The notes under the pieces are model-generated. The model saw only the letters and a list, made by a program, of their open reading frames with translations, did no database searches and was not told the DNA's origin. A stretch of DNA of 64,000 nucleotides, taken from contig OZ219747.1 in assembly GCA_964291265.2 (NCBI GenBank), forward strand, positions 1,664,001 to 1,728,000, read 5' to 3'. Numbering within the stretch: the stretch's first letter is position 1; every line of letters begins with the position of its first letter. Shown one piece after another: positions 31,640 through 53,552 of the stretch. Made by a program: the position numbers and the translations under genes. The DNA is from Alphaproteobacteria bacterium (GTDB lineage: Bacteria > Pseudomonadota > Alphaproteobacteria > SP197).

Positions 31640-31756
31640 AGAACGATATGAAACTTGACTGCTCAAGCATAATGTGAGAATCAACGAAGGTATTTTTTCC
31701 ACAGGAGGCCGATTGTGTCACCCCGCTTATCTGACCACAATGCCGCCACAGTTGCG

Positions 31757-32104
31757 ATGACATCCGGACGGGGAAGACGCCAGCGCGCGGTCATGGCGAG
31801 CGATGCCGAATGGGAGCGGATCGCCCGTGCGGCGGCATCGGCCGGCATGGAGGTCTCGCGCTTCGTCGTCCACCGTGCGCTGATGCCGGACACCCTGCCG
31901 CCGGATGTGATGCGCCGCGCCGTGCGCGAGATCCTGGTGCTCTCGAAACTCGAGGAGCGGCGTCTGCGCGAAGTGGGCGCCGGCAATGCCTGGGACGATA
32001 CCTGCGAAGCGGTCGACCGCTTCCTGGAGAGGGAGGGGGTGCTGGCGACGCTGACCGATCCCGGCGCGGCCAACCGCTGGAAGGCCGAGGGAGAGGACCG
32101 GTGA
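31757..32104 (+). CDS. Ribbon-helix-helix (MobC-like) protein 1
   Basis: RQRAVMASDAEWERIARAAASAGMEVSRFVVHRAL: beta-strand then two helices with the A...G.S.SRF/Y pattern. Confidence 0.7.
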   Translation: MTSGRGRRQRAVMASDAEWERIARAAASAGMEVSRFVVHRALMPDTLPPDVMRRAVREILVLSKLEERRLREVGAGNAWDDTCEAVDRFLEREGVLATLTDPGAANRWKAEGEDR

Positions 32105-32394
32105 GCCGTCCCCTCAAGCGCCAGCGGGCCGTCTACGCACGACCGGATGACCAGGCCCTGATCCGCACACAGGCGGCGAAGCGGGGCAAGTCGATCTCCC
32201 GGTATCTCGTCGACCTTGCCCTCGAGGATGATCCCGACATTCATCCGCTGCATCTCTCGCCTGCCGAGCAGAGGGAGGCCCTCGATGGCATCCGCGCCTT
32301 CGACCGGCTGAGCCGGTCCTTGCGGCAGGATCTTCCGGGCGCCGAGGGTCTCAACCTCTTCGGCATCGAAGCGCTCTCCCGGACGTTGCCATGA
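32101..32394 (+). CDS. Ribbon-helix-helix (MobC-like) protein 2
   Basis: GTG start overlapping the previous stop; RQRAVYARPDDQALIRTQAAKRGKSISRYLVDLAL. Confidence 0.7.
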   Translation: MSRPLKRQRAVYARPDDQALIRTQAAKRGKSISRYLVDLALEDDPDIHPLHLSPAEQREALDGIRAFDRLSRSLRQDLPGAEGLNLFGIEALSRTLP

Positions 32395-32906
32395 GACGGC
32401 CCCGCCGCCGGCAAGGAAGCCGGAAGCAGTCGAAGCACATCGTGATCGCGGCGACGGACGCCGAATGGGAGACCATCAAGGCCCATGCGGCGAGCCGAGG
32501 ACAGTCCTGCGCCCGCTACCTCATCGACCTCGTGAAGAGGGATGCCGCGGAGAGGGATGTCGACCGCCCGGTGGTGCTGACGGCCGAGGAGCAGCGCGAA
32601 CTCCTGGAGAGCGTCAGAGCGGCCTGTGCTCGCCTGACCGGCGGCGTGGCCGACGCGACGCCGCTTGTCGTCGACATGCAGGTGCGGACCGCGGCCGCCT
32701 TCATGGCCTATGCCGACGTCATGGCGAAGAAGGGCCACGGGCGGGAACTCCATCATCGCCTCGCCGACATCGTCGGGGAGGAGACGGCAAGACGGATCCT
32801 CGCCGACGCCGGCACGCAGAAGGAAGAGCGCCCGTCGGCGGTGCAGGTCGACACGGCGCCGGAACCGGCGACACTCTTCGACCTGCTGGACGAAGGCGAC
32901 ACCTGA
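32391..32906 (+). CDS. Ribbon-helix-helix (MobC-like) protein 3
   Basis: ATGA overlap; KHIVIAATDAEWETIKAHAASRGQSCARYLIDLV. Confidence 0.7.
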   Translation: MRRPRRRQGSRKQSKHIVIAATDAEWETIKAHAASRGQSCARYLIDLVKRDAAERDVDRPVVLTAEEQRELLESVRAACARLTGGVADATPLVVDMQVRTAAAFMAYADVMAKKGHGRELHHRLADIVGEETARRILADAGTQKEERPSAVQVDTAPEPATLFDLLDEGDT

Positions 32907-32916
32907 TGCCGCCGCC

Positions 32917-35900
32917 CTACATCGAGAAGCCACGGGACCGTCCCCTCGACTGATCGATCTTCCGAGCCTCCTGCAGTCGTGCGGCGCGCAGGGATTCGTC
33001 TTCCCATGGACGGCGGACGCAGCCGCGCGAGGCAAGTTCGGGTTCGCGCTGGTAGATCATCTCACCGACCTCTGGAGCATTCTCCAGTCCCCAGGACCGA
33101 TCGACCTTCAGGGTCACGAGCCGGCCCCGCCATGACGTGCCATCTGAGACCTCTTCGACCGTGGCCTCGACCTGGGGCGTGTCGCCCTCGACAACGACCC
33201 CGTCCTTGAACAGGTCGGGATCCCGCACGCACGTCCAGCGGATGCGGTCGCCGGCCACCACGCCGTCATCGCAAGGGATGCTGAACATGCCGTCGGGCGT
33301 CGCATACTGACGAGCGACCTCCCTGTCGCGCAAGGTCTCGTCGAACCACAGGCAGCGCCTGAGACCACTCTGGACGGCAAGCGTCCGGATCCGGTATCCG
33401 TCGAGGCTCACGCTCTCGCCCGTGCCTGCCAGGGGCTCGAGGATGACCGTGTTCGACCTGTCGTCGCTCGGGACGACATGGAGGCGCCTGACAATCATGT
33501 CGTGCACGCCTGCCGCGTCATGCCAGGAGAGCCGGTCTCCCCGCACCAACGGGTCGCGGCCGTCCCACGGGATCGTCCGGGCGGACCCTGGCGCCGCCTG
33601 CCGGATCTCCTTCCAGGCATGGCGCAGCCTGACGAGGTGAACGGCGCGGTCCCTCTCCTCGCGCAGCGCCTCGGCGCGGGCGAGCCAGTCCGGCGCCGCC
33701 TCGATGATCCGGGCGATGCGGTCCGGATCGTGCCCGAGGGCCCGCATATGGAGGGCAAGGACATCCCGGCCCATCCTCGCGTCCAGCGCGGCCGCATCGT
33801 CGATGAGGGCCCGCGCCTCGCGAGACCATGCGGCCAGGCCGACGGCGCCGGCATCCGGGCGGCCGGCCTCCAGGCGCAGCGCTTGCCCGGCAAGGCGGCT
33901 CGCCTCCCGGCGGTCCTCCTCCCAGCCCGTGATGCGGGACTTCCAGGCGTCGAGGGACCGGCCGAGTCCGGGCTCGAGTTCCTCAACCGCCTCCAGCCGA
34001 CCGATGCACTCCCGGAGCTTCGCCAGGTTGCCGTCATCGAGGGGGTGGACCGACGACGGCAACCTCCCGATGGCTTCCGCGAGGCGGGTGAACGCCTCGG
34101 TCTCCATGCGGACCAGGGATGCCGCGATACCGGCAACCGCGCGGTCGATCCTGGCTTTGGCGTCGGCCATGTCGTCTGCCGTGACGCCGCGCGACTGCCA
34201 CCGATCCGGCAGCGCCCGGCCCTCGTTCATCAGGACGTTCGCCCGTTGATGGAGGTCGTCGCGGCCCTCGGACGGAACAGCAGGCGGCATGCGGGCAACC
34301 TCGTCCTGCCAGGCGGCCACCCGGGTTTGCCACGCGGCCAGCTCCTCGCCGGCGTGCGTCGTCTCGAGCATGCCGGGCAGACCGTCGATGCGATGTCCGA
34401 GGCCGTGTGGATCGATGCCGCGGGCGCGGCAATGGGAGCTCCATGCAACCGTGTCGCGCGGTGGCAGGAGGGCGATCAACTCCTCGGTGTCCCTGGCCCG
34501 TCGCCGCCAGTCGAGCGCATCCGGCGCTCCGACCGTCGGCCGGGCGGCCTTCAGATCCTGCAAGGCCGTGGCCACCTGCGCCACCAGGTCGCGCCGGGCG
34601 CCCCAGACATCGTCCTGCGCCGTCACCCGCCGGGCCAGTTCCGTCACCGTCCCGTCATCCTCGTCATCGACAACGTTCCGGACGTCGTCCACGAGATCCG
34701 TCCACCCGTCGATGTCGCAGGGGAGAACACCGGCAGCATCGGCCCGGGCCTTGAGGTCGTCGAGACGCCACCTCAAGTAAGCGTGATCGAGGTTGACGAG
34801 AGCCCTTTCCATGTCACGCACTGTGCGTTCCGTGAGGGTCCGCGAGTCCGGGTCCGCCGCGAGGTATGGCGCATGGCCGGGTGAGGTCAGCAGGACCCGC
34901 GCCTTGTCGAGCCAGGCCCCGGCGTCGCGCCGCCACGCCAGCACCGCCGGAGCGCGAGGATCGACGCCGGTCCCGGGTTCGAGGGCGATGGCTCCCAGGA
35001 GTTCGCTCCCGGTCCCCGGATGCCGGGTCACCTCGTTCATGAGGACATGCTGGCGCTCATCGAAGACCCGCCATGCCTCGATCACGCGGCGTTCCCCTTC
35101 CTCCAACCCCTTCTCGGCCATCAGCGTCCTGGCCGTGGCGGCCAGGTCCCGGTAGTCGTCCCGCAGCAGCGCCGCCTCTCCGGCAAGGCGCGGTTCCATC
35201 TCCTCCCAGCGGCGACGAAAGGCTTCCACGCCGGCCTTCGCCATGACGCGCATCAGGCGGGCCACCGAGGCCTCGACGGCAGACGCCGCGTGCGCGAAAC
35301 CCGGAACCGGCGGCGAGGCCTCGAGCCAGCGCGACGCGGTCCTGAACAGACGAAGGCCGCGCTCCATCCACGGTATCATGCGGGGGAGATCCGGCCCGGA
35401 CCCGCCGGAGGAAGCCCAGGCGAGTTCCGGCCAGCACCGCCAGTGACCGGTGATGTCGTCGATCAGGGTCCGCACTTCCCGTTCCGCCGCCTTCGCCGCT
35501 GCGTGGGCAGTGAGACGTTCCTGCGTGAAGGCGCGCAGATCGTCGGGCAGATCCTCGATGGCCGCGAAGGAGGCGATGCGCGCCATCACCTCGTCATGGC
35601 CGGCCACGGTGGAATGAGGGCGTCCGGTGCGCTTTGTCTCGTCCTCGATCGTCTTCCAGTCGGCGATGAGAGCCGCCGCCTCGTCGAGGTCCACCACCGC
35701 GGCATCGAAGTCCTCGCCCAGGACCTCCAGGGCGTTGTCCGGCACGTCGGGCGACGTCTCGAGAGCTTCGATCAGCGCCTCGCGGTCGTCGGTAAGCAAA
35801 GAGAACCCTTCCGAGGCCCGGCTCACCTCGACATAGAAGAGGTCCTGGTTCGCCATGCCACCGGCATCGAGGACGGCGATGACCTTGGGCGCGGTCCTCC

Positions 35901-38030
35901 CCTGGGCGCCGTGGACCGTCGAACTCCAGGCATGGTCGAGGTGGCGCAGCTGGGGATGCGCGCGGGCCAGGGAGAAGGTCTCGCCGCCCGCCGTCTCCAT
36001 CGTCACCCTCCTGGAGCCGATCTCCCTGACGAGAGCCTCCTCTCCGTTCACCAGTTCGGGATGAGGGCTGCGTCCGGCCCGGGCCTTGAGATTGCGGGTC
36101 CAGCGTATCCGGTCGCCCGCCCGGATCTCGATGGGCGCCGTCTCGTAGACACCGAGGTTGCGGGCGGCGTTGCCCGAGGGCCGGAAGCGCCGCTCCCTGC
36201 CGTCGTCATGATCGAGGACGATGGCGTCGTCCCCGACCGAGCGAACGAGGCAGACGTCGTCGCGCCGGCAGCCGTAGGCGTCGCGGTGGAAGACCACCTC
36301 GTCGCCCACGTGGTAGCTGGCGGCAAGCGCCGCCTGCTGGCGGGTGAGGCGGCGGGGCACCAGGCGCTGGATGGTGAGCGTATTCCCGTGGAGAACGCCT
36401 TCCTCGGCCAGGCGCGAGCGGATTGCGTCGTTGATCTGGCGCCTCATCGCGTGGGTGGGAGCCAGCACTGCACAGCGCTTCCGGTCCTCCGGCGACAGCG
36501 CCAGCCATCGTCGGGCAGCCTCGGCGCCCAGAACCTCGCGGTGGTGCTCCCGCACCCGGTTGTCGAGGCGGGTGATGGCCTCGCGGGCCTCGCCCTCCCG
36601 GGCATGGGCCACCGCCACCTCGAGATCCGGGTCCTTCTGCCGCAGCACCTCATCCATCACCGCCGTCGTCATCCCGGCCTTCTGCAACAGCCCGAAGGGC
36701 TGCCCGGCGGTGATCGACTTCAGCTGAGCCGTGTCGCCCGTCAGCACCACCCGCGCCACGCCGAGCTCAGTTGCGATGTGGAGCAGCTCCTTCATCTGCA
36801 CCGTGCCGATCATCGAGGCCTCGTCGACGGCGAGGATGCGCCCCTGGAAGTCCTCCCGGGCCCTCTGCAGGCGGACCGGGTCGGAGAGGTCCCGGTGGCG
36901 CGTCAGGAACCACTGCAACGTGCGGGACGCGATGCCCGCCTCCTTCCGCAGGACCCGCGCCGCAGTCGCCGAAGGCGCCAGGCCGACGATGTTCTCACGC
37001 CCTGCCAGATCGGCCACGCTCTTCAGCATGGTGGTCTTCCCCGATCCCGCATGCCCCTGGATGCCCACGATGAGATCGGGCGCCAGCAGGATGGTGCGCA
37101 CCGCGTCCGCCTGGCCCCGGGTGAGGCGTGTTCCGGCGAGATGCGCCTCGACATCCTCCTGTTCCGCCAGGGCCCGGGCCGTGTCAACGCCCTCGCGGTG
37201 GAGTTCCAGGATGCGCCTCTCGGCCTTCACCGCTCCATCGGTGACGAAGGACCGGTCCGAGCCCTTCGCAGGCGTTTCGATCAGGATGCCCTCGGCCACC
37301 AGGCGGTCAATGGCGGCATCGACCTCGGGAAGGGCGTAGCGCCCCGGTGCAGAACCGAGAGCCAGCGTGCGGATGGCGCGTTCCGGAATCACCGTGCGAC
37401 GTTCCTCGTAATGCGCGACCGCCCGGCAGACCGCCTCCAGAACCCCTGTCTCGGGCGCCATGACGAGTTCCGGCGGAGCATGGCCGGATGGGAAGGCGCC
37501 GCGGATCCGTATCGGGTCGGCCCGTGGCAGGCCGACCTCGGCGCCGTCGCCGACCTTCGGCACGGCGGGCGACCGCCGCCGCCTGCGCCGTTCGTTCAAC
37601 GCCAGGCCGGCGTCAGGATCGGCGGGAAGCGGCGTCCTCTCGCCCGTCACCGGATCGCTCGGGCGCGGCGGCGCCAGGGCCTCCACGTCGCGGGTGAGAC
37701 CCAGCGAACGCGCCCGTTCTCGCCATTGCGGCACCAGTTCGTCGAGACCCGCTTCCACCTTGCGACGGCGGGTGTGGAGAGTCGCCTTCTGCAGCGCCTC
37801 CTTCGTGTGCGGCAACCCGTGCTCGTCGAGATACCTCAGGATCTCGCGGCGCCGCCCCGAAAAGGCGTCGAGGAAGGCCTGATCGTAGCCTGCCAGCTCG
37901 AAACCCGGAACGTCTCCCACCATGCGAGGCGTGATGGCGAACCCCAGGGCTGTCAGCCGCGCGGCGAGTTCGTTGCGGTAGTGGGCGCCGATCAGGCGCT
38001 CGTTGCGGCGCAGCAACGTTGGTTCGATCG
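32917..38030 (-). pseudogene. MOBF (TrwC/TraI-like) relaxase-helicase, C-terminal part (interrupted)
   Basis: YRNELA..L..LG, FS.RR.EI, GHAGSGKTT, DEASM, GDTAQL, STVHGAQG; joins in frame to 43362-43908 after removing the IS21 element. Confidence 0.9.
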
Positions 38031-38189
38031 ATCGCTGTCGGCGGCGATTTAGAACGGCGGGATATTGGCGGAGAACCGCTCTTTTGGGCGCTGATCGTGT
38101 GAGTGGGTGACCACGACAGGAGAACGTGCGGCATTGGACGAAGGTCCGCCCGGTCTTTGTTTTCTGCCTATTGTTGGATCCCATTGGTC

Positions 38190-38530
38190 TTGCATTGACG
38201 TTGACGATGTCGTTCCGGTCGGCGTTTTCTGGCGTTCGGCGTTTGTGGAACGTGATGTGGGAGGGGAGCTTCAGGCTTTTGCGCGTGGTTTCGTTCTGGC
38301 GTTCTCCGTCCTCGTCGTGGTTCGTCGGGCGGGACGATCTCGAGGCTGGAGAGCTGACGGTTTCTGTTGCGCTGGGCGAAGAGGCTGCGTGCGTTGCGGT
38401 TGCGGCGGCGCAGGGTGCGGCAGGCGTCGAGTGTTTTCGGGCGGATGCTGCGACCTGTGAGCCAGTCCGGCGGCGGATCGGGCGTTGCTGCGGCTCAGCG
38501 GCTGCGGCAGTCTCGTGATGTGGTGTCGTT
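38190..38530 (-). pseudogene. Diverged, internally deleted second copy of the Toprim gene
   Basis: 38197-38340 aligns to 39326-39468 and 38340-38530 aligns to 39716-39908, with many substitutions. Confidence 0.75.
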
Positions 38531-39131
38531 TGGACGGCCCGGGGGTTTCCCGGGGAGGCTGAGAGGCGCGTCGGGGTGAGACGTTCTCATTCCTGGATGG
38601 TAACGCGTGACCGCGTTCAAGGGTCTTGCGAGATTACGTGTCCCTTCCGTAGCCGCGTGGCGGTTCGATGTCCTCGAGAGCCTCGATGTCGGCATCGGCG
38701 ACGATCTGCAGGCGTTCTCCGTAAGGCGTGTCACGGAGGGTTTCGGGGATGCTGTCGAGGCGGTCACGCCATTCGTCCTGCAGGGTGCGGCAGGCGTTGA
38801 GTGTTTTCGGGCGGATGCTGCGACCTGTAAGCCAGTCCGGCCAGCGGCTGCGGCAGTCTCGTGATGCGGTGTCGTTTGGACGGCCCGGGAGTTTCCCGGG
38901 GAGGCTGAGCGGCGCGTCGGGGTGAGACGTTCTCATTCCTGGATGGTAACGCGTGACCGCGTTCAAGGGTCTTGCGGGATCACGTATCCCTTCCGTAGCC
39001 GCGTGGCGGTTCGATGTCCTCGAGGGCCTCGATGTCGGCATCGGCGACGATCTGCAGGCGTTCTCCGTAAGGCGTGTCACGGAGGGTTTCGGGGATGCTG
39101 TCGAGGCGGTCACGCCATTCGTCCTGCAGGG
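38410..39131. repeat. Tandem duplication of a ~350-370 bp unit
   Basis: 38410-38785 and 38780-39131 are nearly identical; the second unit lacks 24 nt; GCAGGG microhomology at the junction. Confidence 0.88.
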
Positions 39132-39270
39132 CGCGCAGTTCGGCCACGGCGTCGTTCCAGCGTTGCGGTCGCGAGCGCCGGTCACGATGCTTTGGGGTGT
39201 GGACGGGAGGGATGCCGGCCTTGCGCCGTTCCCGGTATCGCCGCTGCTTTTCGGCGGGCGTGAGGGGCAT
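38980..39270 (-). CDS. Small hypothetical protein (96 aa)
   Basis: AAGGAG RBS; MPLTPAEKQRRYRERR...EPPRGYGRDT; its 3' half is duplicated at 38634-38785. Confidence 0.75.
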   Translation of the reverse strand: MPLTPAEKQRRYRERRKAGIPPVHTPKHRDRRSRPQRWNDAVAELRALQDEWRDRLDSIPETLRDTPYGERLQIVADADIEALEDIEPPRGYGRDT

Positions 39271-39296
39271 GAGTGGTCTCCTTGTGACGGACGTGG

Positions 39297-40190
39297 TCAT
39301 GATCTCGCTTGTGGTTCTTTGGTCCTGGCGTTGACGACGTCGTTCCAGTCGGCGTTTTCCGGCGGTCTGCGTCTGTGGAACGAGACGTGGGAGGGGAGCT
39401 TCATCTTTTTGCGCAGGGTTTCGGCCTGTCGCTCTCCGGCCTCGTCGTGGTCCTGGGCGAGGACGATGGTCCTGACGTTGGGCAGGCTGCTTGCGGCGAG
39501 GCTGATCTGTTCGTGCTGTCTTCGCGAGGGTGCCCCGGCGGTGGAGAGGAAGGCGTGGCTGGGGGGACATTGGTCGATCTGGGCCAGGCTGAGGGCGTCG
39601 ACGGCGCTTTCGGTGATGACGAGGGCCTCGAGGTCCGCGGCGGTTCCGGCGCGGACGGCGAACAGGCTTCGGGTTCCACCGGTGGCGAAGCGTTTCGGTC
39701 CGTCGGGGGGACCGATCTCGAAGCCGGTGAGCTTTCGCTTCCTGTTGCGATGGGCGAAGAGGACGCGTCCGTTGTGGTCGCGGCGGACCAGGGGGCGGCA
39801 GGTGTCGAGGGTCTCCGGGAGGATGCCGCGCCCGGTGAGCCAGTCCGGGGCCGCATCGGGCGTTGCCGCGGCCCAGAGGCTGCGGAAGTCGCGTGGCGCG
39901 GTGTCGGGTGCTGTGAAGCGGGTGCAGATGTCGGCGAAGGCCAGTCCGCGGTTGAGCATGAAGTCGATGACGGTTCCGTTGTCTTCATCGTTCTGGGTGT
40001 TGAAGTAGACCCAGTGTCCGTTGTTGAGGCACTTCGTGACGAGCTTCGGCAGGCCGGGTGCGCACAGGACGGGGTTGGCGCGTGTCGAGGCCTGTTCGTC
40101 GCGGACGTATCCCCAGTCGGCGGCGATGCGTTCGAACGGCATGCGCTTGACGGCGTCGAAGTCGACGCGGCGGGGTTTATCGGGTTTCAC
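39297..40190 (-). CDS. DUF3991/Toprim primase-like protein
   Basis: WVYFN..DNGTVIDF, WL..RGI, VITESAVDALS, LAQDHDEAG (DxD), DWND; GTG start overlapping the istB end. Confidence 0.8.
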   Translation of the reverse strand: MKPDKPRRVDFDAVKRMPFERIAADWGYVRDEQASTRANPVLCAPGLPKLVTKCLNNGHWVYFNTQNDEDNGTVIDFMLNRGLAFADICTRFTAPDTAPRDFRSLWAAATPDAAPDWLTGRGILPETLDTCRPLVRRDHNGRVLFAHRNRKRKLTGFEIGPPDGPKRFATGGTRSLFAVRAGTAADLEALVITESAVDALSLAQIDQCPPSHAFLSTAGAPSRRQHEQISLAASSLPNVRTIVLAQDHDEAGERQAETLRKKMKLPSHVSFHRRRPPENADWNDVVNARTKEPQARS

Positions 40191-40878
40191 GCCTGAGCCG
40201 CCAGGAGTCGCTGTCGATGGAGATGAGGGTTGCGTCGTGCATGAGCCGGTCGACGGTGCCGGCGATGCCGGAGGCGCTGGGGAAGACGCGGTCCCACTGG
40301 GCGAAGGCGAGGCTTGTCGTGACCATGGTCGAGCGGCGCTGATAGCGCCGCGAGACGATGGCGTAGAGGATGTCGGCATGGTGGCTTTCGAGGGTCACGT
40401 AGCCGATTTCGTCGAGGACGAGCAGGCGGGGCCTGGCGAGGATCGCGAGGCGGCGGCGCAGCTCGCTGCGCGAGACGGTCTCGGCGAGTGCCTCGAGCAG
40501 TTCCGGCGCCTTCTCGAAGCGGACGGTGTGGCCGTGCAGCAGGGCCTGGTGCGCCACGTTGGCGGCGATCATGGTCTTTCCGGTGCCCTGCCCGCCGACG
40601 AGCACGGCGTTGTCCGCACGGTCGACGAAGCCGAGGCCGAGGAGCGCTTCGACATGAGCCCGGCTGATGTCGCGCGGCCATGTCCAGTCGAAGTCCGCCA
40701 GGGGCTTGAAGGCGGGCAGCCGCGCCGCGGCGCGGCGGCGCTCGTGGCTGCGGGCCCTGCGGGCCTGTTCCTCGCCGCTGACCACCTCCTCGATCCATGC
40801 GGTCCCGGCGACCTCGTCCCAGCGTTCGACGAGCCCGTGGAGGCCGAGCGCCCGGGCACGCTCCCTGAGCTCGCTCAT
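40177..40878 (-). CDS. istB: IS21 helper ATPase IstB
   Basis: FDWTW, GGQGTGKT Walker A, LLVLDEIG Walker B, RY.RRS..VTT, DRL.H. Confidence 0.92.
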   Translation of the reverse strand: MSELRERARALGLHGLVERWDEVAGTAWIEEVVSGEEQARRARSHERRRAAARLPAFKPLADFDWTWPRDISRAHVEALLGLGFVDRADNAVLVGGQGTGKTMIAANVAHQALLHGHTVRFEKAPELLEALAETVSRSELRRRLAILARPRLLVLDEIGYVTLESHHADILYAIVSRRYQRRSTMVTTSLAFAQWDRVFPSASGIAGTVDRLMHDATLISIDSDSWRLRRETR

Positions 40879-42368
40879 GTCTTGTTCCTGGCGCTGGCTT
40901 CGGGCCTGTCGTAGGCGTCGAGAGCGGTCCCCCGCGGCGTCGTGCCACGGCCGCCGCGGCCGTCGTCGGCGATGCTGAGGGGCGGCAGGCCCTGCTCCCG
41001 GCGGCGCTCCTCGATGATGACGCGCACGGTTTCGGGGTGGCACGAGCCGCGCTCCAGCGCCGTGGCGACAGCCCGGTCGAGAGCGTCGGCGCCGTGCGCG
41101 TTGAGAAGCGTCTCCAGCATCCGGGCGCAGGAGGCCACGTTGCGCCCGTTGGTCCCGGCGCGCGCCAGCATCTCCTCGGCCCGCGGCACGGTGCGCAGGA
41201 CCCGGTCGCGGACGCTCATGGAGCGGGCCCGCCGCTTGCCCGCGGCGATCGCCCTGGCATGCTCCGGATCGGTGACGGCCTGCTTCCTGTCGTAGGAGCG
41301 TCGGTGGCGCGCGACCTCGTCGGCGCCGTCGAGGATGCGGACCTCGTCGCGGTCGGCGACCAGCGTCAGCAGGGCCTTGGAGAAGCTACCCGGAACGCTG
41401 TAGTCGTTGGTGTCGAAGCGGGCGTGGCAGGTCTTGTCGATGCGCACCGGGCGGACCTCGTGATGCGGGAAGGGGTCGACGGGAAGGACGATCAGGTGCT
41501 CCCTCTCCCGGGCGAAGGCGTCCCGCACCAGGAGACTGTCGTCGTCCGGCCAGGGCCGCTCCGCGGCGGCGCCGAAGCACCACTCCCGAACCGCGGCGTT
41601 GAGCTCGCCGAGCGGGACCGTGATGTCGCGCCCGGCGAAGAACCCGGTGCGCGCGAAGCGCACACGGCGTTCCACGCGGCCCTTCTCCTGCGGGCTCCTG
41701 GGCCAGGCGGCGCTCGGTTCGAAGGCATAGTGGGCCGCGAGGCCGAGCAGCATCGGATGATAGGTGACCGCCTTGCCGCGGCGCGTCACCACGGCACTCT
41801 TCAGGTTGTCGTACAGAAGCCTCCGCGGCACACCCCCGAATGCCGCGAAAGCCTCGACATGGCCTTGCAGGAAGCTGGCCATCCGCGCGTCGTGGAACAG
41901 GCTCAGGACAGTCTGGCGCGAGTAGCTGAGGGTGACGAGAAGCCCCATGAGCCTGCGCTCCGCCCGGCCAATGCGGACCTTCCCGAACTCGGCCCAGTCA
42001 ACCTGCGCCTGCTCGCCCGGAAGGAAGCTCAGCCGCAGCGACGGCTCGGGCCTCTTCACCGGCCTCAGCCCGAGGCGGCGCAGGTCGTGACGGAAGTGAT
42101 CCTCGCCGCCGCGGTAGCCCAGGGCCACGACCTGTCGCCAGAGCGTGCTGGCCGGAAGGTCCGGCGACGCCTCAAGACGCTCCCCGAGGAAGGCAACGAA
42201 GGGGTCGATGAGCTTGGCCCGCGGCCGCCGCTCCTGCCCCGACGCCTTGAGCGCCCGCGTCACCGTGCCGTGGTGCACGCCGAGATGCCGGGCAATCGTC
42301 CCCACAGCCCAGCCCTCGGCCCGCGACAGCCGCACGATCGTCGCCCGCGTGTCCTCGTCGATCGCCAT
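40875..42368 (-). CDS. istA: IS21 transposase IstA
   Basis: N-terminal HTH, PGEQAQVDW, LSYSR, FGGVP..LLYDNLKS, QEKGRVER, N.YSVP. Confidence 0.94.
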   Translation of the reverse strand: MAIDEDTRATIVRLSRAEGWAVGTIARHLGVHHGTVTRALKASGQERRPRAKLIDPFVAFLGERLEASPDLPASTLWRQVVALGYRGGEDHFRHDLRRLGLRPVKRPEPSLRLSFLPGEQAQVDWAEFGKVRIGRAERRLMGLLVTLSYSRQTVLSLFHDARMASFLQGHVEAFAAFGGVPRRLLYDNLKSAVVTRRGKAVTYHPMLLGLAAHYAFEPSAAWPRSPQEKGRVERRVRFARTGFFAGRDITVPLGELNAAVREWCFGAAAERPWPDDDSLLVRDAFAREREHLIVLPVDPFPHHEVRPVRIDKTCHARFDTNDYSVPGSFSKALLTLVADRDEVRILDGADEVARHRRSYDRKQAVTDPEHARAIAAGKRRARSMSVRDRVLRTVPRAEEMLARAGTNGRNVASCARMLETLLNAHGADALDRAVATALERGSCHPETVRVIIEERRREQGLPPLSIADDGRGGRGTTPRGTALDAYDRPEASARNKT

Positions 42369-42400
42369 GAACTCCCTCCCTTTGGTTCCTCAACGCCGCA

Positions 42401-42931
42401 TCACAGGTCCCTCAGCACCACATGCGTCACGACCCGTCCGCACCGGGCGCACCGAAGCGGCGATTCGCGTCGCTCTCGCGCCTTCACAACCGCAGGTAGG
42501 GAGGTCGGCAGCAGTCGGGAAGGGTGGTCCGTAACGATTTCTTCGGAACCGGCGTCTCCAGACACCGCCGGAACGTCGCCAAGCAGCACCACAGCAGACG
42601 TCTGCGTGCCCATGATCTCGGCAAGCATCGCCGCCCTGGCCTTCAACGCACGCGCCTCCTCCGCCTTGCGGAGCCGGTAACGCCGCTGGCGGTGACGGCC
42701 CGTCTCACGGCCCCTCAGCGTGCTCTGGTAGCGACGACGCGACGCGCGGCGCCGCTCGATCCGGGACCGCTCCCTGCACTCATCGGAGCAATACACATGC
42801 CCCCGGTCACACGACCGGCAGAGAACAACCTGCCGCTGACACCGCTTGCAGTTGAACAGTCGTCCCGTCGTGCACACGATCCGTCTCGAGAGCGGGGGTG
42901 GACCCGGACGCAAAATGGCTCGACAATACAC
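42401..42931 (-). CDS. Cys-rich Zn-finger, Arg-rich hypothetical protein
   Basis: CKRC..CRSCDRG..YCSDEC then a basic helix and a C-terminal CARCGR; directly upstream of istA; start may be 42874. Confidence 0.72.
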   Translation of the reverse strand: MYCRAILRPGPPPLSRRIVCTTGRLFNCKRCQRQVVLCRSCDRGHVYCSDECRERSRIERRRASRRRYQSTLRGRETGRHRQRRYRLRKAEEARALKARAAMLAEIMGTQTSAVVLLGDVPAVSGDAGSEEIVTDHPSRLLPTSLPAVVKARERRESPLRCARCGRVVTHVVLRDL

Positions 42932-43258
42932 GGGAGTTCGGTCCCCCGTGACCGGCTCGTCCGGGTGCTGCGCCGGGGGGCGTCATCACAACTCTGCCCG
43001 GCATCGCATCGCTCTTTCTTTCGATGCCGATCTAGCATCCACCCGGGGCGGCGGCAAAAACGCCGCCCCGGGACCGGACAACACGACCCAGACCACAGGG
43101 AAAACAGACGATCCCGCGAGTGCCTCGGAACCGAAACCCTCCCGGCAACCGTCACCAAGACCGAAGCAGAGGCCGACGGAACAATCCGAACCGGACCAAA
43201 ACGACAATAGGAAAACGGGCGGCGCTCGGGGAGACAATCAGCCGAACACTGAACCCAC

Positions 43259-43297
43259 GACAACAGGACGTGACAATAGGACCTGACAACAGGGAAG
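43259..43297. repeat. Three tandem 13-bp subterminal repeats
   Basis: GACAACAGGACGT, GACAATAGGACCT, GACAACAGGGAAG; an extra GACAATAGGA at 43203. Confidence 0.65.
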
Positions 43298-43361
43298 AAA
43301 CACGACCCTGACAAAGCGCGGCAAATCGCCGAAATCCCGCCGTTCTATGCAGCCATCAACA

Positions 43362-43908
43362 ATCGCCAGTCGCCCTCGCGGTTCCTCGTCATGTTGGCGA
43401 CGATGCAGTGGGTATGGAGCTGGGGGTCGAGATCGCGGCTGGTCAGGTGGCGGAACCCCGCCACGACCGAGCCGTCGGCCTTCACCCGGGGGCGGCGCCT
43501 CGTCGCCGGATCCCAGCCCCGGGTCTCCAGCAGCTCCGCCTCGATCCAGTCGAGCGTCGCCCGCACCGCCTCGTCGTGGGCGCGGATGACACGCTCATCC
43601 CCCACCACCAGAGCCTCGATCGACACCGACTTGGGCGCCGAACAGGTGATGTCCCAGCCCGGACGGTGCTGGTGCTCGCCCTCGACGATCCGCCCCAGCC
43701 GGATGTCCGTCTTCGGAACCTTGCCCTGCAGCACCGACTCGAAGCGTGACGGCACCACGTGACCGCGCAAGCCGAGCTCGCGGGCCGCGGCGCCGTGCCA
43801 GAAGCTCGCCTTGCGGTGCTCGGGATCGTTCCGCGCGTAGTACCCGTCCTGCTCGTAGTACGAAACCGCGGTCGCCGAGGACGCCAGTTCGTGAACCGTC
43901 GCCACCAT
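43362..43908 (-). pseudogene. MOBF relaxase, N-terminal part (interrupted)
   Basis: SYYEQDGYY catalytic Tyr cluster, GWDIT.SAPKSVS, H.TSR..DPQLHTH (3H motif). Confidence 0.93.
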
Positions 43909-43949: not shown

Positions 43950-44843
43950 TCACCGGAACAATTGGTGCATCAGGAACATCTGATCCTCCAGCAACATGCC
44001 GGCAACGATCGCCAGGAGGATGACCGGCAGCGCCACCCGGAAATGGCGCAGACTGCGGGACTGTCTCGCCGCTTCGCGGGCCTCCGTGGAGAGAAGCGAA
44101 AGGTCATTCCTGACCGTCCCGAAGGACACGTGAAGCGAGTTGACCCGTTTGCCGTGGGTGTCGAGCGACGTGTGAACCGTCTCGAAGTCGCCGGACATGT
44201 CTTTCGTCAAAGTGCGCTGTGCGCTCTCGAGCTCGGCGACCCTCGCCGCCAGCCTGTCGATGCTGGCAAACCCCTTTACCAACTCTTCCGAAATCCCGCC
44301 GGCCGTCTCGGGCGTCGCAGGGGTAGCGGGGGTGGGCATGGCCGTCGGCGGCGCCGCGACTTCGTCGGGTCGTGGAATGCGCTCCACGGCGGCCCTGAGG
44401 TCGTCACGCACCTCTCCCAGAGAGCTGACGACCTTCGGAAAGAGCGCCGCACTCTCCTCGAGGCGTGCCGTGGCGCAATTCATCGCTTCCACTTCAGCGC
44501 TGACTTCCGCCGGGTCGTTCTGACGCCGACCCTCCTCGGTGTCGGGAGCGGGCGCCACCGCCTTCATGAGTTCGTCGTACTGAGACGTGGTCGCCGTGAC
44601 CTGCTTCTCCGTGGCAGTCTCAAGCTTCCCGATGGCCGCAAGGACATCGGCATGCGCCTCTGGCGCAGGCAGCGTGTCGGAAGGCAGGTAGTCCCGCACC
44701 AGTTGCTGCAGGTCCGTGCTGATCTCCAGCAGCCGGTCGATCTTCTCCGCGTCAACCGCAGCCGGCGGCGCGGCTGGCCGCAGAGGTTGCAGGAGATCGT
44801 TGTCGGGTGTCGTGTGTGGTGTCGCGTCGCGATCGGCTGTCAT
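43950..44843 (-). CDS. Coiled-coil protein with C-terminal transmembrane helix
   Basis: Heptad-rich segments, C-terminal VALPVILLAIVAGMLL; immediately upstream of and co-oriented with the relaxase. Confidence 0.7.
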   Translation of the reverse strand: MTADRDATPHTTPDNDLLQPLRPAAPPAAVDAEKIDRLLEISTDLQQLVRDYLPSDTLPAPEAHADVLAAIGKLETATEKQVTATTSQYDELMKAVAPAPDTEEGRRQNDPAEVSAEVEAMNCATARLEESAALFPKVVSSLGEVRDDLRAAVERIPRPDEVAAPPTAMPTPATPATPETAGGISEELVKGFASIDRLAARVAELESAQRTLTKDMSGDFETVHTSLDTHGKRVNSLHVSFGTVRNDLSLLSTEAREAARQSRSLRHFRVALPVILLAIVAGMLLEDQMFLMHQLFR

Positions 44844-47153: not shown

Positions 47154-49499
47154 CTTTCAAAGTGCCAGACTTGTATAGGTGATTCGTTTCGTGCATGCTG
47201 CGTGCATGCAGGTTGGTCTCCGCCATTTCGATTCGCAGACGCTTGACTGGTTTGCCGGCGCGTTGCGCTCCGCCGACGCCACCCGTCACGGTCTGGCACG
47301 CGAGCTTTGCGAGCGCACCGGTTGGCGCAACGCGCTCGGCCGTCCGTGCCTGTCGGCGGCGGCGAAGGTGCTGCCGGCGCTCGCCGAGCGCGTGGGGTTG
47401 GAGCTTCCGCCGCCGCGGAGCGTGCCCGATCCGACCGTCGTGCCCGCCGTCCCGGCCGGTGACGTCCCCGACACCAAGCTGGTCTGCCTGCTGGAGGATC
47501 TCGGCCCGGTCTCGCTCGAACCGGTGGGCGACGCCGACGATCGCCGTCTCTGGGAGGCGATGATGGCGACGCACCACCCGCTGGGATGGACGCGCTCGCC
47601 CGGCGGGCAGGTGCGCTACTGGATCCGCTCGCAACGCCACGGCACCCTCGGCGGGATCGGCTTCGGGTCCGCGACCTGGCAGCTGCGGGCGCGGGATGAG
47701 TGGATCGCATGGTCCGCCGACGCCCGTGCCGCCAACATCGAGCGTGTGATCTGCGGTCATCGGTTTCTCCTGCTTCCCGGCGTTCGGGTCTACGGACTGG
47801 CCTCCCGGGTCCTGCGCATGGCGGCGGAGCGCATCGCCGACGATTGGGAGGCCCGCTATGCGGTGCGCCCGGTGGCGGCCTACACTCATGTCGGTGCGGA
47901 GCACAGCGGCTATTGCTACCACTGCGCCGGCTGGACCGTGGCCGGGCGGACCAGCGGGCGCCGGGGCAAGGCCGGCACGGTGCGGGTCCTGGCCCTGGAG
48001 AGCGGCTGGCGGACGGTGCTCCACGGGACACAGCGCCGTCCACTCGGCGCCCTGGCGGGCGTCTATGACGGCACTGACGCGGACTGGGCGGAGCGGGAGT
48101 ACGGGCGCACGCGCCATACCGACGGCCGGGTGCGGCGACGCATCGTTGACATGGGCCGGGCCTGGATGAAGAACATGGGGGAGGACCTGCCGATCATCTT
48201 TCCCGAGAAGGCGGAGCAGAAGGCCGCTTATCGGTTGCTGTCGAACCCGAGGGTATCCATGGAGCACGTTCTGGAAGCGCATGTTGAGGCGACCGTGGAG
48301 CGTTGTCGGACAGAGCCTCTTGTCCTTGCGATACAGGACACGACGGCGATCAACTACAGCGGCTTGGAGGCCACGAAGGGTCTGGACAAGATCGGCGGCG
48401 GTGGCAAGGGGAGCGTCGGCATCCTCGCCCACGCCGGTCTGGCGGTGACGTCGGAGGGCCGGCCGCTGGGCCTGTTCACGATGGATGCGGCCTTTCGGCA
48501 GGAGCCCGGGGAGGACAGTCAGCGCTGGGTCACCGGGCTTGAGCGGGCCCGGGAGCTCGCGGCGGCCTGCCCGGACACGCGTGTCGTCTCGGTCTGCGAC
48601 CGCGAGGGCGACTTCTGGGAACTGCTCGCCCATGCCGCGGACGCCGGAGCCGCGCTGCTGGTGCGTGCGAGCCGTTCGGCGAAACAGCGTGTGGGTGAGC
48701 CCGACGGCAAAGAGACGTGCCTGTGGAAGCATGTCGCGGCCCGGCCGCTGGTCGCAGTGACGGAGCTGACGATCCCGGCCGCTGGCGGCCCGCGCGCCCG
48801 CAAGGAGCGCGTCGCCCGTCTCGAGATCCGCACGGCACAGGTCGAGGTGGCGCCGCCGCAAAAGGAGCGCGACGCGGAGCCTGTGTCCATGTTCGCGGTC
48901 TCGGCCAGCGAGGCCGGAACCGGTGACGGCGACGAGGCCCTGCACTGGCTGCTGCTGACCACCGAGCGCCCGGCACCAGGGGAGGCCGAGGCCGTGCACG
49001 CGGCGACCGTCCTGGGCTGGTACCGGACGCGATGGAGCATCGAGACCTGGTTCCGCACGCTGAAGACCGGGACCCGGATCAAGGACCGCCGGCTCGACAG
49101 GGCCGACGACCTGAAGACGTGCCTTGCCTTCGACGCCGTCACCGCCGTCCATGTTGCCGACCTGACCGTGCTTGCGCGCGAGCGTCCCTTGACCCCGGCG
49201 AGCGAGGTGTTTGCCGAGGAGGACATCGACCTGCTCCGCACGCTGCTGGAATCCCAGGGTCACCGGGAAGTCCGGGCGATGGGCGATGTCCGTGCCGTCG
49301 TCATCGGCCTTGGGCGCCTCGTCGGGTGGCATCCCACGCCGCGCCAGACGCTCCCGGGAGCGAAGAAGCTCTGGCAGGGTCTCGAAAGGCTGAACTGGGC
49401 GATCCAGGTGCGTGACGCACTTGGCGCAAGAAGGCGGCACGAAGCACTCGGTGAGAGAAGGCGGGAGTAACATCCCTATACAGCGTGGGTGGTTGAAAG
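47154..49499 (+). mobile_element. IS4-family element, copy 2 (intact), 2346 bp
   Basis: 9-bp TSD ATGCGGGGC at 47145-47153 and 49500-49508; same TIRs as copy 1. Confidence 0.93.
47179..49470 (+). CDS. IS4/Tn5-like transposase with N-terminal DUF4338 (DruA-like) domain
   Basis: N-terminal HHPLG..G.QVRY, RDEWIAWS, RFLLLPGV....LASRVL, GYCY...GW...G.T.GR; C-terminal AAYRLL.N, IQDTT, V.DREGD, W.LLT, Y..RW.IE..F..LK.G. Confidence 0.88.
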   Translation: MIRFVHAACMQVGLRHFDSQTLDWFAGALRSADATRHGLARELCERTGWRNALGRPCLSAAAKVLPALAERVGLELPPPRSVPDPTVVPAVPAGDVPDTKLVCLLEDLGPVSLEPVGDADDRRLWEAMMATHHPLGWTRSPGGQVRYWIRSQRHGTLGGIGFGSATWQLRARDEWIAWSADARAANIERVICGHRFLLLPGVRVYGLASRVLRMAAERIADDWEARYAVRPVAAYTHVGAEHSGYCYHCAGWTVAGRTSGRRGKAGTVRVLALESGWRTVLHGTQRRPLGALAGVYDGTDADWAEREYGRTRHTDGRVRRRIVDMGRAWMKNMGEDLPIIFPEKAEQKAAYRLLSNPRVSMEHVLEAHVEATVERCRTEPLVLAIQDTTAINYSGLEATKGLDKIGGGGKGSVGILAHAGLAVTSEGRPLGLFTMDAAFRQEPGEDSQRWVTGLERARELAAACPDTRVVSVCDREGDFWELLAHAADAGAALLVRASRSAKQRVGEPDGKETCLWKHVAARPLVAVTELTIPAAGGPRARKERVARLEIRTAQVEVAPPQKERDAEPVSMFAVSASEAGTGDGDEALHWLLLTTERPAPGEAEAVHAATVLGWYRTRWSIETWFRTLKTGTRIKDRRLDRADDLKTCLAFDAVTAVHVADLTVLARERPLTPASEVFAEEDIDLLRTLLESQGHREVRAMGDVRAVVIGLGRLVGWHPTPRQTLPGAKKLWQGLERLNWAIQVRDALGARRRHEALGERRRE

Positions 49500-50944: not shown

Positions 50945-51745
50945 CTATACGGGCATTCGTATCAGAGTGCGGCTCTTGATCAACTTGCGAAAATAGTCCT
51001 CAATGCGCCGCGCGACAAGTTCCGAGTCAACGAGCAGGCCAAGCTCGATGTTTCGTTGCTGTGCGGCCTCGGTGAAGTTTGCTGACGTGACCAGGGCTTC
51101 GCGACCGTCGATGACCACACATTTTGCGTGCATGGAGCTTGCGGACCTCCCGGCCCTTTCAAGAGAGCGAGGATCGAAACAGATGTCGGGAAGGCGCTGG
51201 CCGGGCCACTCCTTATCTCGGAAGCGAACTGCAAACCGGCGGACAATGTCCCTTGCGAGTGAGGTATCACCGGGGCCCCGACTGATGTCAAGGCAGAGAG
51301 TTGCGTCGAGTGACGGGTCCGCGTCGAGACGGTCGGCAAGGACTCTGAACAGTGTCTTGCCCTGGTGGACCGCAAAGCCGGCTACGAGGATGCGTTGTGT
51401 GGCCCTTGCGAACAGCTGCCTGACAACAACACCGGTGTCGCGTGCTCCTTCGGTGTCGCCCGGGCCACTGACCACCACGTCGACGGGCCGTGATGTGGAA
51501 CTTCCTGACTCCAGCCCCGCCATGAAGGCGCGAAGGAGTCGCGCAAGGTCGCGTGGAGCCATACCCTCGGCAAAGAAGTGCGACAGACAGTGCGCCACGG
51601 TCTCGGCGACGGACATGGGAACGTGGGCATGAAGTGCAAGAGCACTGATTGGTGGAACGAGAAGGCCGGCATCGAGGAGTTCAGCGAGCCTCTGGAGGTC
51701 GTCCTTTGCAAGGGGGGAGAGGCCCTTGAAATCCCCGGTGTTCAC
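50945..51745 (-). CDS. drmC: DISARM phospholipase D nuclease DrmC
   Basis: MHAKCVVID...TSANFT.....N.ELG (HKD motif); last gene of the operon. Confidence 0.9.
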   Translation of the reverse strand: MNTGDFKGLSPLAKDDLQRLAELLDAGLLVPPISALALHAHVPMSVAETVAHCLSHFFAEGMAPRDLARLLRAFMAGLESGSSTSRPVDVVVSGPGDTEGARDTGVVVRQLFARATQRILVAGFAVHQGKTLFRVLADRLDADPSLDATLCLDISRGPGDTSLARDIVRRFAVRFRDKEWPGQRLPDICFDPRSLERAGRSASSMHAKCVVIDGREALVTSANFTEAAQQRNIELGLLVDSELVARRIEDYFRKLIKSRTLIRMPV

Positions 51746-53547
51746 GGATTGCCGAGATCAAAGAAGGCGGCGTCCTGGACACTGACTGTCGGCGCCACGA
51801 GGGCCCGGTCCAGAAAGTCATTGCGTTGCTCGCAGCTTGTTTCGGCTATGAGAAGACAGCCGTGGCATGCGGCTCCCTGCAGCATGCGCCCTTCGAGAGG
51901 GGAGTCGGGGCGATGTTCAGCACACACTGGATCATTCGAGCACAGACGACCCTTCTCGAGTGCGGCGTGAACATGCGTCTCAAGGCGTCGTCCTGCTTCG
52001 ACCAGACCACCGAGCGTGCCTTCGGCATCCGACGAGCCTGTATAGATCAGGATGCCGTATCCATTTTCGCCGGCATAGACACGTTCACGCAAGGAACTCG
52101 CGGGGTACCCGCAATCGAGGGCGATGGACGTCAACAGCATGTGGGAAAGCGAATGCAGCATCACATAGGCAAAACCGGGAAAGTCCTCGACAGAACGGTG
52201 ATGTTCTCTGGCCCATGCCCTCCACCCACTTTCAATCTCCTGACCTCGCTTCTGGACACCGGGTAGCGCCAGCCATTTCTCGATAGCGGCCTGACGAAAG
52301 GAGATGAAAACACCTTCACCGCGATTTTCGATGGCAGGGAGCCACTCGATTGTCTCTGCCAGCGCCGCTCTTGCCACACCGATGTCGAGTTCACCGTCCT
52401 TGTCCGGGTTGACGGCCTCGAAGCGTGTGAACCCGATCAGAGCCACGACCTCTCGCAGTCGGTGAACCAGGACGAGCTTGTCAATATCTGCGAGGGTTGG
52501 GATACCGCCCGGGTCCCAGTCTCCTCGAGGGAGCGTCTCGGCGTGGAACGTGTAACGCGGATCGTCGTGTCCAATGGTTAGGGACCCGTTGTTCAGCACG
52601 TCGAACTCGGCGGCCTTGACCGGAATGTCGTCTTCATCGCCACTGCGAAGCTGACGCCGGTACTCGGCGATCACGACATCATCATCGATGTTGGCGAACG
52701 CCGCATCGAGATCCGGTGATCCGCGGAAGTTGGCAAGCATGTTGACGTCGTCAAGCGTCTTCAGGCGATCAAGGTAAGGGGACACCATCGAGGCGAGGCC
52801 AACATCGTGTTCGGGAAGTGAGATGACACGCATCGTCTGTGGGAAGTAGGCGTTGCTCGCCGTGCGTACCAGGAGGCGATAGGGTTCACCGCAGGCTTCC
52901 CTGGCATACTGACCAATCCATGGTCTCTTGCCTTCGCAGGGGCCGAGAGACTCGGTGCCCGGCATGGAGGCTTCATAGAGAGAGCGCTCTTTGCCACATT
53001 CACAGACGGCGAACGCATCTCCGATATCGGCTCCGGTTCCGCGTTCTTCAAGCCACATGGGCCGTGCGCACGCCTTCCCACCAGGATGGACAAACCGCCG
53101 CCAGTCCAGATCGTCGATATGGCCCTTGCGGCATCCACAGACGAACCGCACCGGAACAACCGGCCTGCGCTTGCCCTTCTCGTTGCGGTATTGTCCCCCC
53201 TCCAGATCGTTCCACCGCACCAGCCGGCGCCGGCGCCACTGCGGATTGGTTGTCGAGGTCACGACGTCTTTCACGATGAACCATGTCGGAAAGATGCGGG
53301 CGCCTACAGGGCTCTTCTTGTCCTGTACGCCATCTTCATGGCGCGGAGGTGACTGGAGGACCAGCGCTGGCACGTTCAACAGGCGCTTCAGTTTGGCAAC
53401 GAGGCGAGGTTCGTCGATTTTTTCCCGTCTGAGCGCGGACCACTGTTCGAGGCTGGATACGACCACCGAACACTGTGGCAGATCGATCATGGCCCCTGGA
53501 CCATAGGTTGTGACGAGCTGGCTTTGGCGAAGGATGTTGTCGGTCAT
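51742..53547 (-). CDS. drmB: DISARM DUF1998 protein DrmB
   Basis: RQSQLVTTYGPGAMIDL, PVRFVC.C..GHI.D, H.LSH, GTLGGLV, CSNDPVC..ACHGC...ETSCE. Confidence 0.92.
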   Translation of the reverse strand: MTDNILRQSQLVTTYGPGAMIDLPQCSVVVSSLEQWSALRREKIDEPRLVAKLKRLLNVPALVLQSPPRHEDGVQDKKSPVGARIFPTWFIVKDVVTSTTNPQWRRRRLVRWNDLEGGQYRNEKGKRRPVVPVRFVCGCRKGHIDDLDWRRFVHPGGKACARPMWLEERGTGADIGDAFAVCECGKERSLYEASMPGTESLGPCEGKRPWIGQYAREACGEPYRLLVRTASNAYFPQTMRVISLPEHDVGLASMVSPYLDRLKTLDDVNMLANFRGSPDLDAAFANIDDDVVIAEYRRQLRSGDEDDIPVKAAEFDVLNNGSLTIGHDDPRYTFHAETLPRGDWDPGGIPTLADIDKLVLVHRLREVVALIGFTRFEAVNPDKDGELDIGVARAALAETIEWLPAIENRGEGVFISFRQAAIEKWLALPGVQKRGQEIESGWRAWAREHHRSVEDFPGFAYVMLHSLSHMLLTSIALDCGYPASSLRERVYAGENGYGILIYTGSSDAEGTLGGLVEAGRRLETHVHAALEKGRLCSNDPVCAEHRPDSPLEGRMLQGAACHGCLLIAETSCEQRNDFLDRALVAPTVSVQDAAFFDLGNP

Positions 53548-53552
53548 GATGT

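Follow-up and report, generated by a model that had tools for sequence, protein, structure and literature searches.

A four-gene IS21-type transposon of Alphaproteobacteria with a predicted Toprim primase that may act in copy-out transposition

Why does an IS21-type insertion sequence carry a primase-like gene behind its transposition genes, and what might this gene do? The question is raised by a 5326-bp element at positions 38036–43361 of the window, by which we mean the whole 64,000-nucleotide stretch analysed (positions 1,664,001 to 1,728,000 of contig OZ219747.1, assembly GCA_964291265.2, from an alphaproteobacterium of the SP197 lineage). Of the steps in the most common route of bacterial transposition, the one at which a copy-out intermediate becomes a replication fork is least understood, and it has been assigned to host proteins. 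We propose, with a probability of about 0.5 and relying in part on structure models, that this is an active four-gene IS21 transposon whose fourth gene encodes a predicted primase that likely primes the DNA synthesis copying the element out of its donor.

The element begins with TGTC and ends with AACA, giving TG...CA ends in the direction of its five genes, all of which lie on the minus strand. In this direction, the left terminal inverted repeat (TIR; 43313–43361, minus strand) opens with TGTTGA and the right one (38036–38084, minus strand) closes with CCGACA; the arms 38050–38084 and 43313–43347 form the longest inverted repeat of the region. A target-site duplication, ATCGC, is read at 38031–38035 beside the right end and at 43362–43366 beside the left end. 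Five repeats resembling CCTRTTGTC occupy the left end (43207–43293, minus strand; three spaced by 13 bp and two further in) and one clear copy the right end; these are putative binding sites. The element interrupts a gene whose 5′ part (43362–43908, minus strand) encodes a MobF/TrwC relaxase domain and whose 3′ part (32917–38030, minus strand) encodes the remaining relaxase, a helicase and a long C-terminal region. Removing the element together with one ATCGC in silico produced a stop-free frame of 1886 codons for a MobF relaxase-helicase, with DWR-SIEPT at the joint. The empty allele itself was also found: among the three sequencing runs of one study (X1, X2 and X3; contigs examined at two settings), contigs of X2 and X3 jump exactly 5331 bases at the insertion site. 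The earlier note on this DNA, made from the letters alone, had described a single TIR pair with a perfect duplication around 5326 bp, a relaxase restored by excision and a unit that moved as one, and all three points are borne out by these data and the copies described below.

The host genome (4.83 Mb in two contigs) contains 51 matches to the left end and 42 to the right end, which were joined automatically into 36 pairs. Target duplications flank 29 of the 36 (5 bp in 23 cases, 6 bp in 4 and 7 bp in 2), and some of the other seven are mis-pairings at nested copies. There are 32 full-length copies, 24 of them distinct, amounting to about 3.5% of the genome. Intact full-length genes number 34 for the cysteine-rich open reading frame (ORF) that heads the element, 34 for istA, 37 for istB, 35 for the Toprim gene (plus one with a stop) and 32 for the terminal 96-aa ORF (plus five with a stop). 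Two copies are shorter by about 350 bp (4971 and 4975 bp), and one of these has a 5-bp duplication. No target consensus was evident across the 29 insertion sites. These results show that the element is a real and very active mobile unit. Its family is a major force in its hosts, with 32 full copies here and over 20 loci on the chromosome of another. Copies nested in copies were seen at G000:C2 295923–308929, 4058043–4075257 and 4237410–4258495 of the host genome; this involves 4 of the 29 sites as compared with 6.5% expected, and is not significant (p 0.12).

The genes were assigned as follows, all on the minus strand. The cysteine-rich ORF (42401–42877) encodes a putative zinc-binding protein of about 158 aa, probably starting at GTG 42877 as judged from homologues, and matched no family in Pfam, NCBIfam, PADLOC or Atlas. 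It is followed by istA (40875–42368; DDE transposase of 497 aa with D124, D187 and E233 assigned by motif) and istB (40177–40878; AAA+ ATPase of 233 aa, Walker A at 98 and Walker B at 155), joined by an ATGA overlap, and then by the DUF3991/Toprim gene (39297–40190), which starts at GTG 40190 and overlaps istB by 14 nt. Its 297-aa product combines a zinc-less domain resembling a zinc-binding domain with an RNA polymerase domain of the T7/DnaG type. A 96-aa basic/acidic ORF (38980–39270), which we regard as accessory cargo, comes last. IstA scores 222.4 bits with the IS21 transposase model NF033546 (cut-off 160); IstB scores 171 bits with PF01695 (cut-off 24.1), in agreement with an IS21 ATPase, and 191.4 bits with NF038214, just below the cut-off of 200. 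Inverted repeats ending in CA and a short target duplication are also those of the family. Canonical members such as IS21 and IS5376 consist of istA and istB between TIRs (PMC10122671, PMC11208146; here and below, articles are cited from the portion of their text that was available), and the present element shares with them IstA, IstB, the overlap of their genes, the TG...CA ends and duplications of mostly 5 bp. It differs by the cysteine-rich ORF in front, the primase-fold gene behind and a length of 4.0–5.3 kb in its lineage. Having four core genes and cargo instead of two ORFs, it is therefore a variant of the IS21 family and not a canonical member.

Is the Toprim gene a fixed part of the transposon or a chance passenger? 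A Toprim-first scan of GTDB genomes yielded 247 confirmed matches, from which 76 loci were kept; 67 of these are at least 48% identical to the Toprim studied here, and 55 of the 67 are full length. Every one of the 55 lies after istB, 53 also have istA, and 50 have all four genes; where a close locus lacks part of the gene set, the cause is a contig end, a nested element or decay. Fourteen assemblies contributed the 55 loci; their titles name Paracoccaceae, Rhodobacteraceae, Alphaproteobacteria and, in one case, Acidimicrobiales. At 43 loci from eight multicopy genomes, related TG...CA ends surround 4.05–4.65 kb, with duplications of 5–7 bp at 34 of them (the automatic choice of ends was wrong for 4 of the 43).

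IstA-first searches, which involve no selection for Toprim, were carried out with 32 other genomes of the family and gave matches in five. Toprim was present in G004, G009 and G016, although one of the four G009 sites retained it only as a truncated remnant; G012 had a truncated istA; and G015, with an IstA of 47% identity, lacked Toprim. Assembly G431 contained four istA genes, the same number as its Toprim loci. All intact elements found in this way whose IstA is at least 49% identical carry Toprim. Under a codon model applied to trimmed rows of 11 elements, omega was 0.185 for Toprim, 0.202 for IstA and 0.147 for IstB, and 0.396 for the cysteine-rich ORF (10 elements); Nei-Gojobori ratios were set aside, being inflated by GC bias. 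Tree distances correlated between IstB and Toprim (r 0.86) and between IstA and Toprim (0.80) about as they did between IstA and IstB (0.89), and 4 of 8 splits were shared by each pair. This IS21 lineage carries Toprim as a fixed gene under purifying selection, in line with the earlier suggestion that the primase-like gene is coupled to the transposition genes.

The proposal of a tight co-directional operon of five genes stood as regards the common strand and the two overlaps, but not as regards its last member. The 96-aa ORF was rejected as a core gene: it was found in only one of the other assemblies that carry the four-gene element and contains a stop in 5 of 37 copies in its own genome, and homologues occur behind an IS110-like transposase and in a different IS21 element. 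It is because of this rarity, these stops and these homologues that we regard it as swappable cargo. One such homologue, 78% identical, follows a transposase at G000:C2 3033243–3034510 (minus strand) and at three further copies; from its motifs, we take this transposase to be IS110-like. The right-hand 0.9 kb of the element contains duplicated DNA, namely a second, degenerate Toprim copy with an internal deletion (38196–38528, minus strand; two pieces derived from the 3′ half of the gene, 81–83% identical to 39326–39467 and 39697–39906) and a tandem duplicate with a period of 346 bp that covers the 96-aa gene's 3′ portion together with the DNA that follows (38410–38789, minus strand). These repeats at 38196–38789, the large multicopy family and the exclusion of the 96-aa gene from the core go beyond the earlier note.

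We then consider what the Toprim protein is. Its structure model (mean predicted local distance difference test score, pLDDT, 90.9) matched the primases T7 gp4, DnaG and Twinkle, the match to T7 primase (1nui) having a Z of 15.4 and a root-mean-square deviation (rmsd) of 3.4 over 179 aligned residues; in a hidden Markov model comparison, T7 gp4 was matched with an E of 6e-10. Residues E194, D247, D249 and D281 are invariant in 57 of 57 homologues. The first three align with T7 E157, D207 and D209, R174 aligns with K137, and K166/R167 lie near K128; D281, which presumably corresponds to T7 D237, is outside the aligned stretch. As judged from these alignments, the metal-binding site of the predicted primase is intact. 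When the N-terminal domain alone was compared with 48,161 chains, the top four matches were primase zinc domains, with modest Z values of 6.1–4.1 (rmsd 3.0–4.3); Foldseek with this domain alone gave no match at an E of 0.001. The idea that the cysteine-rich ORF supplies the missing zinc domain in trans is unlikely, because relatives of the element that lack Toprim carry this ORF too.

These relatives, a sister subgroup with IstA of 39–47% identity, were sampled at 15 loci (8 examined out of 58 plasmid records, and 7 further loci). They reside on plasmids of Burkholderia, rhizobia, Aromatoleum and Methylotuvimicrobium, are annotated as istA, istB and hypothetical genes, and retain the cysteine-rich gene wherever the locus extends far enough. 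The earlier note had counted a lack of Toprim in the closest IstA homologues against its reading; the outcome is split, in that all intact elements found at 49% identity and above carry the gene, as described, and these next-closest relatives do not. At 13 of the 15 loci, homologous ORFs of 61–76 aa stand at the istB stop, so that the sisters share the order cysteine-rich ORF-istA-istB with our element and differ in the fourth gene, which encodes a small protein mostly with a tail like that of SSB, the protein that binds single-stranded DNA. Its ends include DDPPF, FDDPSF, FNDEIPF and FDPDEPF. A tail rule (xF after two or more acidic residues) is satisfied at 10 of the 15 loci, as compared with 0 of 11,806 like-sized frames of the host genome, whose own SSB ends in DFDDGIPF. 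The SSB C-terminus DDDIPF binds DnaG, PriA and the chi subunit of Pol III (PMC5872125). In the IstA tree, the Toprim-bearing and the small-ORF groups are sister groups and L087 is unplaced, so that either fourth gene may have replaced the other. In one sister, locus L188 of G141, istB is followed by an unrelated ORF of 101 aa, which adds another occupant to this slot. In our element, the right inverted repeat (38053–38067, minus strand) gives IPPF-stop in one frame, which resembles an SSB tail without the acids and is probably due to chance.

What might a primase and an SSB-like tail have in common? In IS21-type elements, IstA nicks the ends and IstB loads IstA on the target; copy-out of IS911, for its part, reportedly needs DnaG. 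IS21 transposition requires both IstA and IstB (PMC10122671), copy-out has been proposed for IS21 (PMC11208146), and host replication, with the freed 3′-OH as primer, is described as processing the figure-eight of IS30 and IS2 (PMC9333248, PMC3219604). Leading-strand synthesis from this 3′-OH would displace a single strand, which would need a new primer. In the present lineage, the element's own primase may supply it, while in the sisters the small protein with the SSB-like tail would recruit host PriA/DnaG instead. Natural alternatives in one gene slot, a primase and an SSB-tail mimic, make the fork-start step testable by simple swaps.

A number of observations weigh against the priming role. 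The N-terminal domain has no conserved cysteine or zinc-ligand set among homologues, only H59 being near-invariant; E158 and G160 stand at the positions of the basic T7 residues K122 and R124; 5 of 11 elements have Asn at D198, the position of T7 D161; and in human Twinkle, according to the portion of the study available, such changes abolished priming and left DNA binding (PMC9860392). Both dnaG and priA are intact in the host, which rejects loss of the host primase as an explanation; the Toprim therefore fills no gap, and what it could bring would be speed or independence. No Toprim was found at the 15 sister loci by a profile search that recovered its positive control, and since the sisters transpose without it, IS21 chemistry in itself does not depend on Toprim. 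As to the tails, the rule was written after the sequences had been seen, two pairs of sister loci are near-identical, and 5 of the 15 loci fail it. In a different, 3423-bp IS21 element of G431 (see below), the Toprim faces istB and is not in its operon. Finally, no circle or end-to-end dimer junction was found in the assembly or in the contigs of the three runs, contigs being prone to drop rare forms.

The best surviving alternative, which we regard as unlikely without dismissing it, is that the protein is a pseudo-primase, a non-catalytic binder of single-stranded DNA or adaptor that protects the displaced strand or passes the intermediate to the host replisome. The missing zinc ligands, the changes in the basic cleft and the substitution at D198 would all fit, and the N-terminal domain of Twinkle is a precedent (in the same source, PMC9860392). 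Against it, E194, D247, D249 and D281 are invariant in all 57 homologues, and plasmid relatives share the zinc-less N-terminal domain and E158, which are therefore traits of the family and not signs of decay inside the transposon.

A role in cell-to-cell spread appears improbable; here the element would travel on a conjugating plasmid or an integrative and mobilizable element, and its protein would, as in its plasmid relatives, prime the second strand of the incoming DNA. The idea draws on the conjugation or plasmid neighbours of more distant Toprims (38 of 89 loci), on the 363 conjugative or mobilizable plasmids among 503 matching ones, on the location of the present copy in a relaxase gene and on the insertions in repeated DNA (16 of 29 flanks, as compared with 22.7% of 600 sites drawn at random; p 1.5e-4). 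On the other hand, the Toprim gene starts inside istB, 35 of its 36 full-length chromosomal copies are intact, the present copy destroys the relaxase that it entered, and an SSB-like tail occupies the same slot in the sisters.

TnsE steers Tn7 to replication forks, and the Toprim might likewise be a target selector that directs IstB to forks. The location of the gene behind an AAA+ gene and the enrichment in repeated DNA would accord with this, although survival bias also explains the latter. We consider the idea very improbable: with the fork direction inferred from GC skew, 16 copies are oriented with and 17 against the fork, which rejects an orientation bias, and the 29 insertion sites are without an evident consensus. 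Least credible of all is independent replication of the excised circle as a mini-replicon, for which a related ExeA-type element of the same genome with a RepA-like AAA protein and Toprim (5161 bp, six copies) could be cited, since none of the five ORFs is a helicase or initiator, no junction was seen as stated above, and the depth of X1 contigs, about 2000 over the element and 48–61 on its flanks, fits 35–37 chromosomal copies (such depth being no measure of copy number). It is thus very unlikely that the element is an autonomous replicon, and the earlier suggestion that it blurs the line between insertion sequence and replicon is not supported.

Where, then, did the primase gene come from? 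The nearest relatives outside transposons are 30–38% identical. Among 89 distant Toprim loci (28–40% identity), 38 are neighboured by topoisomerase III, VirD4, TrbI, relaxase, RepA or ParA; the transposase and ATPase queries used, which other transposase types would escape, matched none of the 89. In the ten plasmid records examined out of the 503, Toprim belongs to a transfer region or a MobV relaxase or has unnamed genes around it, and the available text on a rhizobial mutant reports that a DUF3991 gene rises together with tra genes (PMC13055273). A second transposon clade of Toprims comprises the last genes of ExeA-type DDE elements (5161 bp in the host genome with the RepA-like gene, 4006 bp in G005 with 15 full Toprim matches, and others in G002, G009, G010 and G013) and the Toprim of the 3423-bp IS21 of G431. 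In a 40-row tree (7 and 8 transposon rows and 25 plasmid-context rows, picked from larger sets), each transposon clade falls beside plasmid relatives of its own; a single origin holding both clades together was rejected (approximately unbiased test, p-AU 0.00026); the tested grouping was chosen after the first tree, and one and two captures became separable only once plasmid MobV-type relatives were added. As far as can be read from these sequences, the transposon Toprims derive from conjugative plasmids, by at least two captures or by a single one followed by a return to plasmids.

The 5161-bp element (G000:C2 47062–52222, minus strand, and five more copies) encodes a cysteine-rich ORF, a DDE transposase, an ExeA-type ATPase, the RepA-like AAA protein and Toprim, and the IS21 element has inserted into two of its copies. 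The G431 element (L282:1506–4928) has an IstA of 31% identity, five copies and duplications of 7–8 bp; a version in G010 (L265) has the 96-aa gene in between.

Taking these elements together, we put forward tentatively, as a view to which we incline a little less than halfway, that transposons with a DDE transposase and an AAA ATPase, of the IS21 and Tn6049-like types, possess a so far unrecognised position behind the ATPase gene, a swappable slot for replication start. Its occupant would be a primase taken from plasmids on at least two occasions, a helicase and primase, or an SSB-tail mimic recruiting the host restart machinery, and the element itself would then encode machinery for a copy-out step hitherto credited to the host. 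Tn6049 of Cupriavidus metallidurans is described as 3.5 kb long, present in 12 copies and carrying a gspA-like ATPase gene (PMC2864759, PMC4739549). Like it, our element is a compact DDE and AAA transposon, and presumed Toprim-bearing relatives of Tn6049 end in a DUF3991/Toprim gene; unlike our element, these have an ExeA-type ATPase and an IS481/Mu-like transposase, and their Toprim is a separate capture. These presumed relatives, the 5161-bp and 4006-bp elements, were tied to Tn6049 by the description of gspA. Classification of our element as Tn6049-type was rejected, its ATPase being IstB and ExeA-type ATPases occurring only in the other elements. The nearest precedent is the insertion sequence excision enhancer (IEE), described as an AEP primase-helicase that is encoded outside the insertion sequence and promotes excision (bioRxiv 10.1101/2023.06.07.543989). 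The two are alike in that a primase would act at the copy-out step of a circle-forming insertion sequence, but our protein is of the Toprim type and encoded inside the element. Plasmid DUF3991-Toprim proteins, free or fused to MobV, have the same domain layout and catalytic acids, and differ in that our gene is enclosed in a transposon and inherited with istA and istB. No published description of such an element was found in the open literature searched; subscription journals, supplements and ISfinder/TnPedia were outside its scope, so an ISfinder entry may exist. New here are a 32-copy member with intact acidic residues, the tests of selection and of capture, and SSB-like tails in the slot of the IS21 sisters.

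Around the element, two NikA/ribbon-helix-helix-like genes (31715–32906, plus strand) adjoin the split MobF relaxase gene (32917–43908, minus strand), upstream of which lies a coiled ORF (43950–44843, minus strand). The relaxase-region genes, standing beside recQ, suggest by their content a mobilizable island. This region is adjoined by a complete-looking class I DISARM cluster, drmD-drmMI-drmA-drmB-drmC (50945–63900, minus strand). The window also contains two copies of an IS4/Tn5-like transposase gene with an N-terminal DruA-like domain (23984–26202 and 47179–49470, both plus strand), one of which is in a single frame and the other in two frames.

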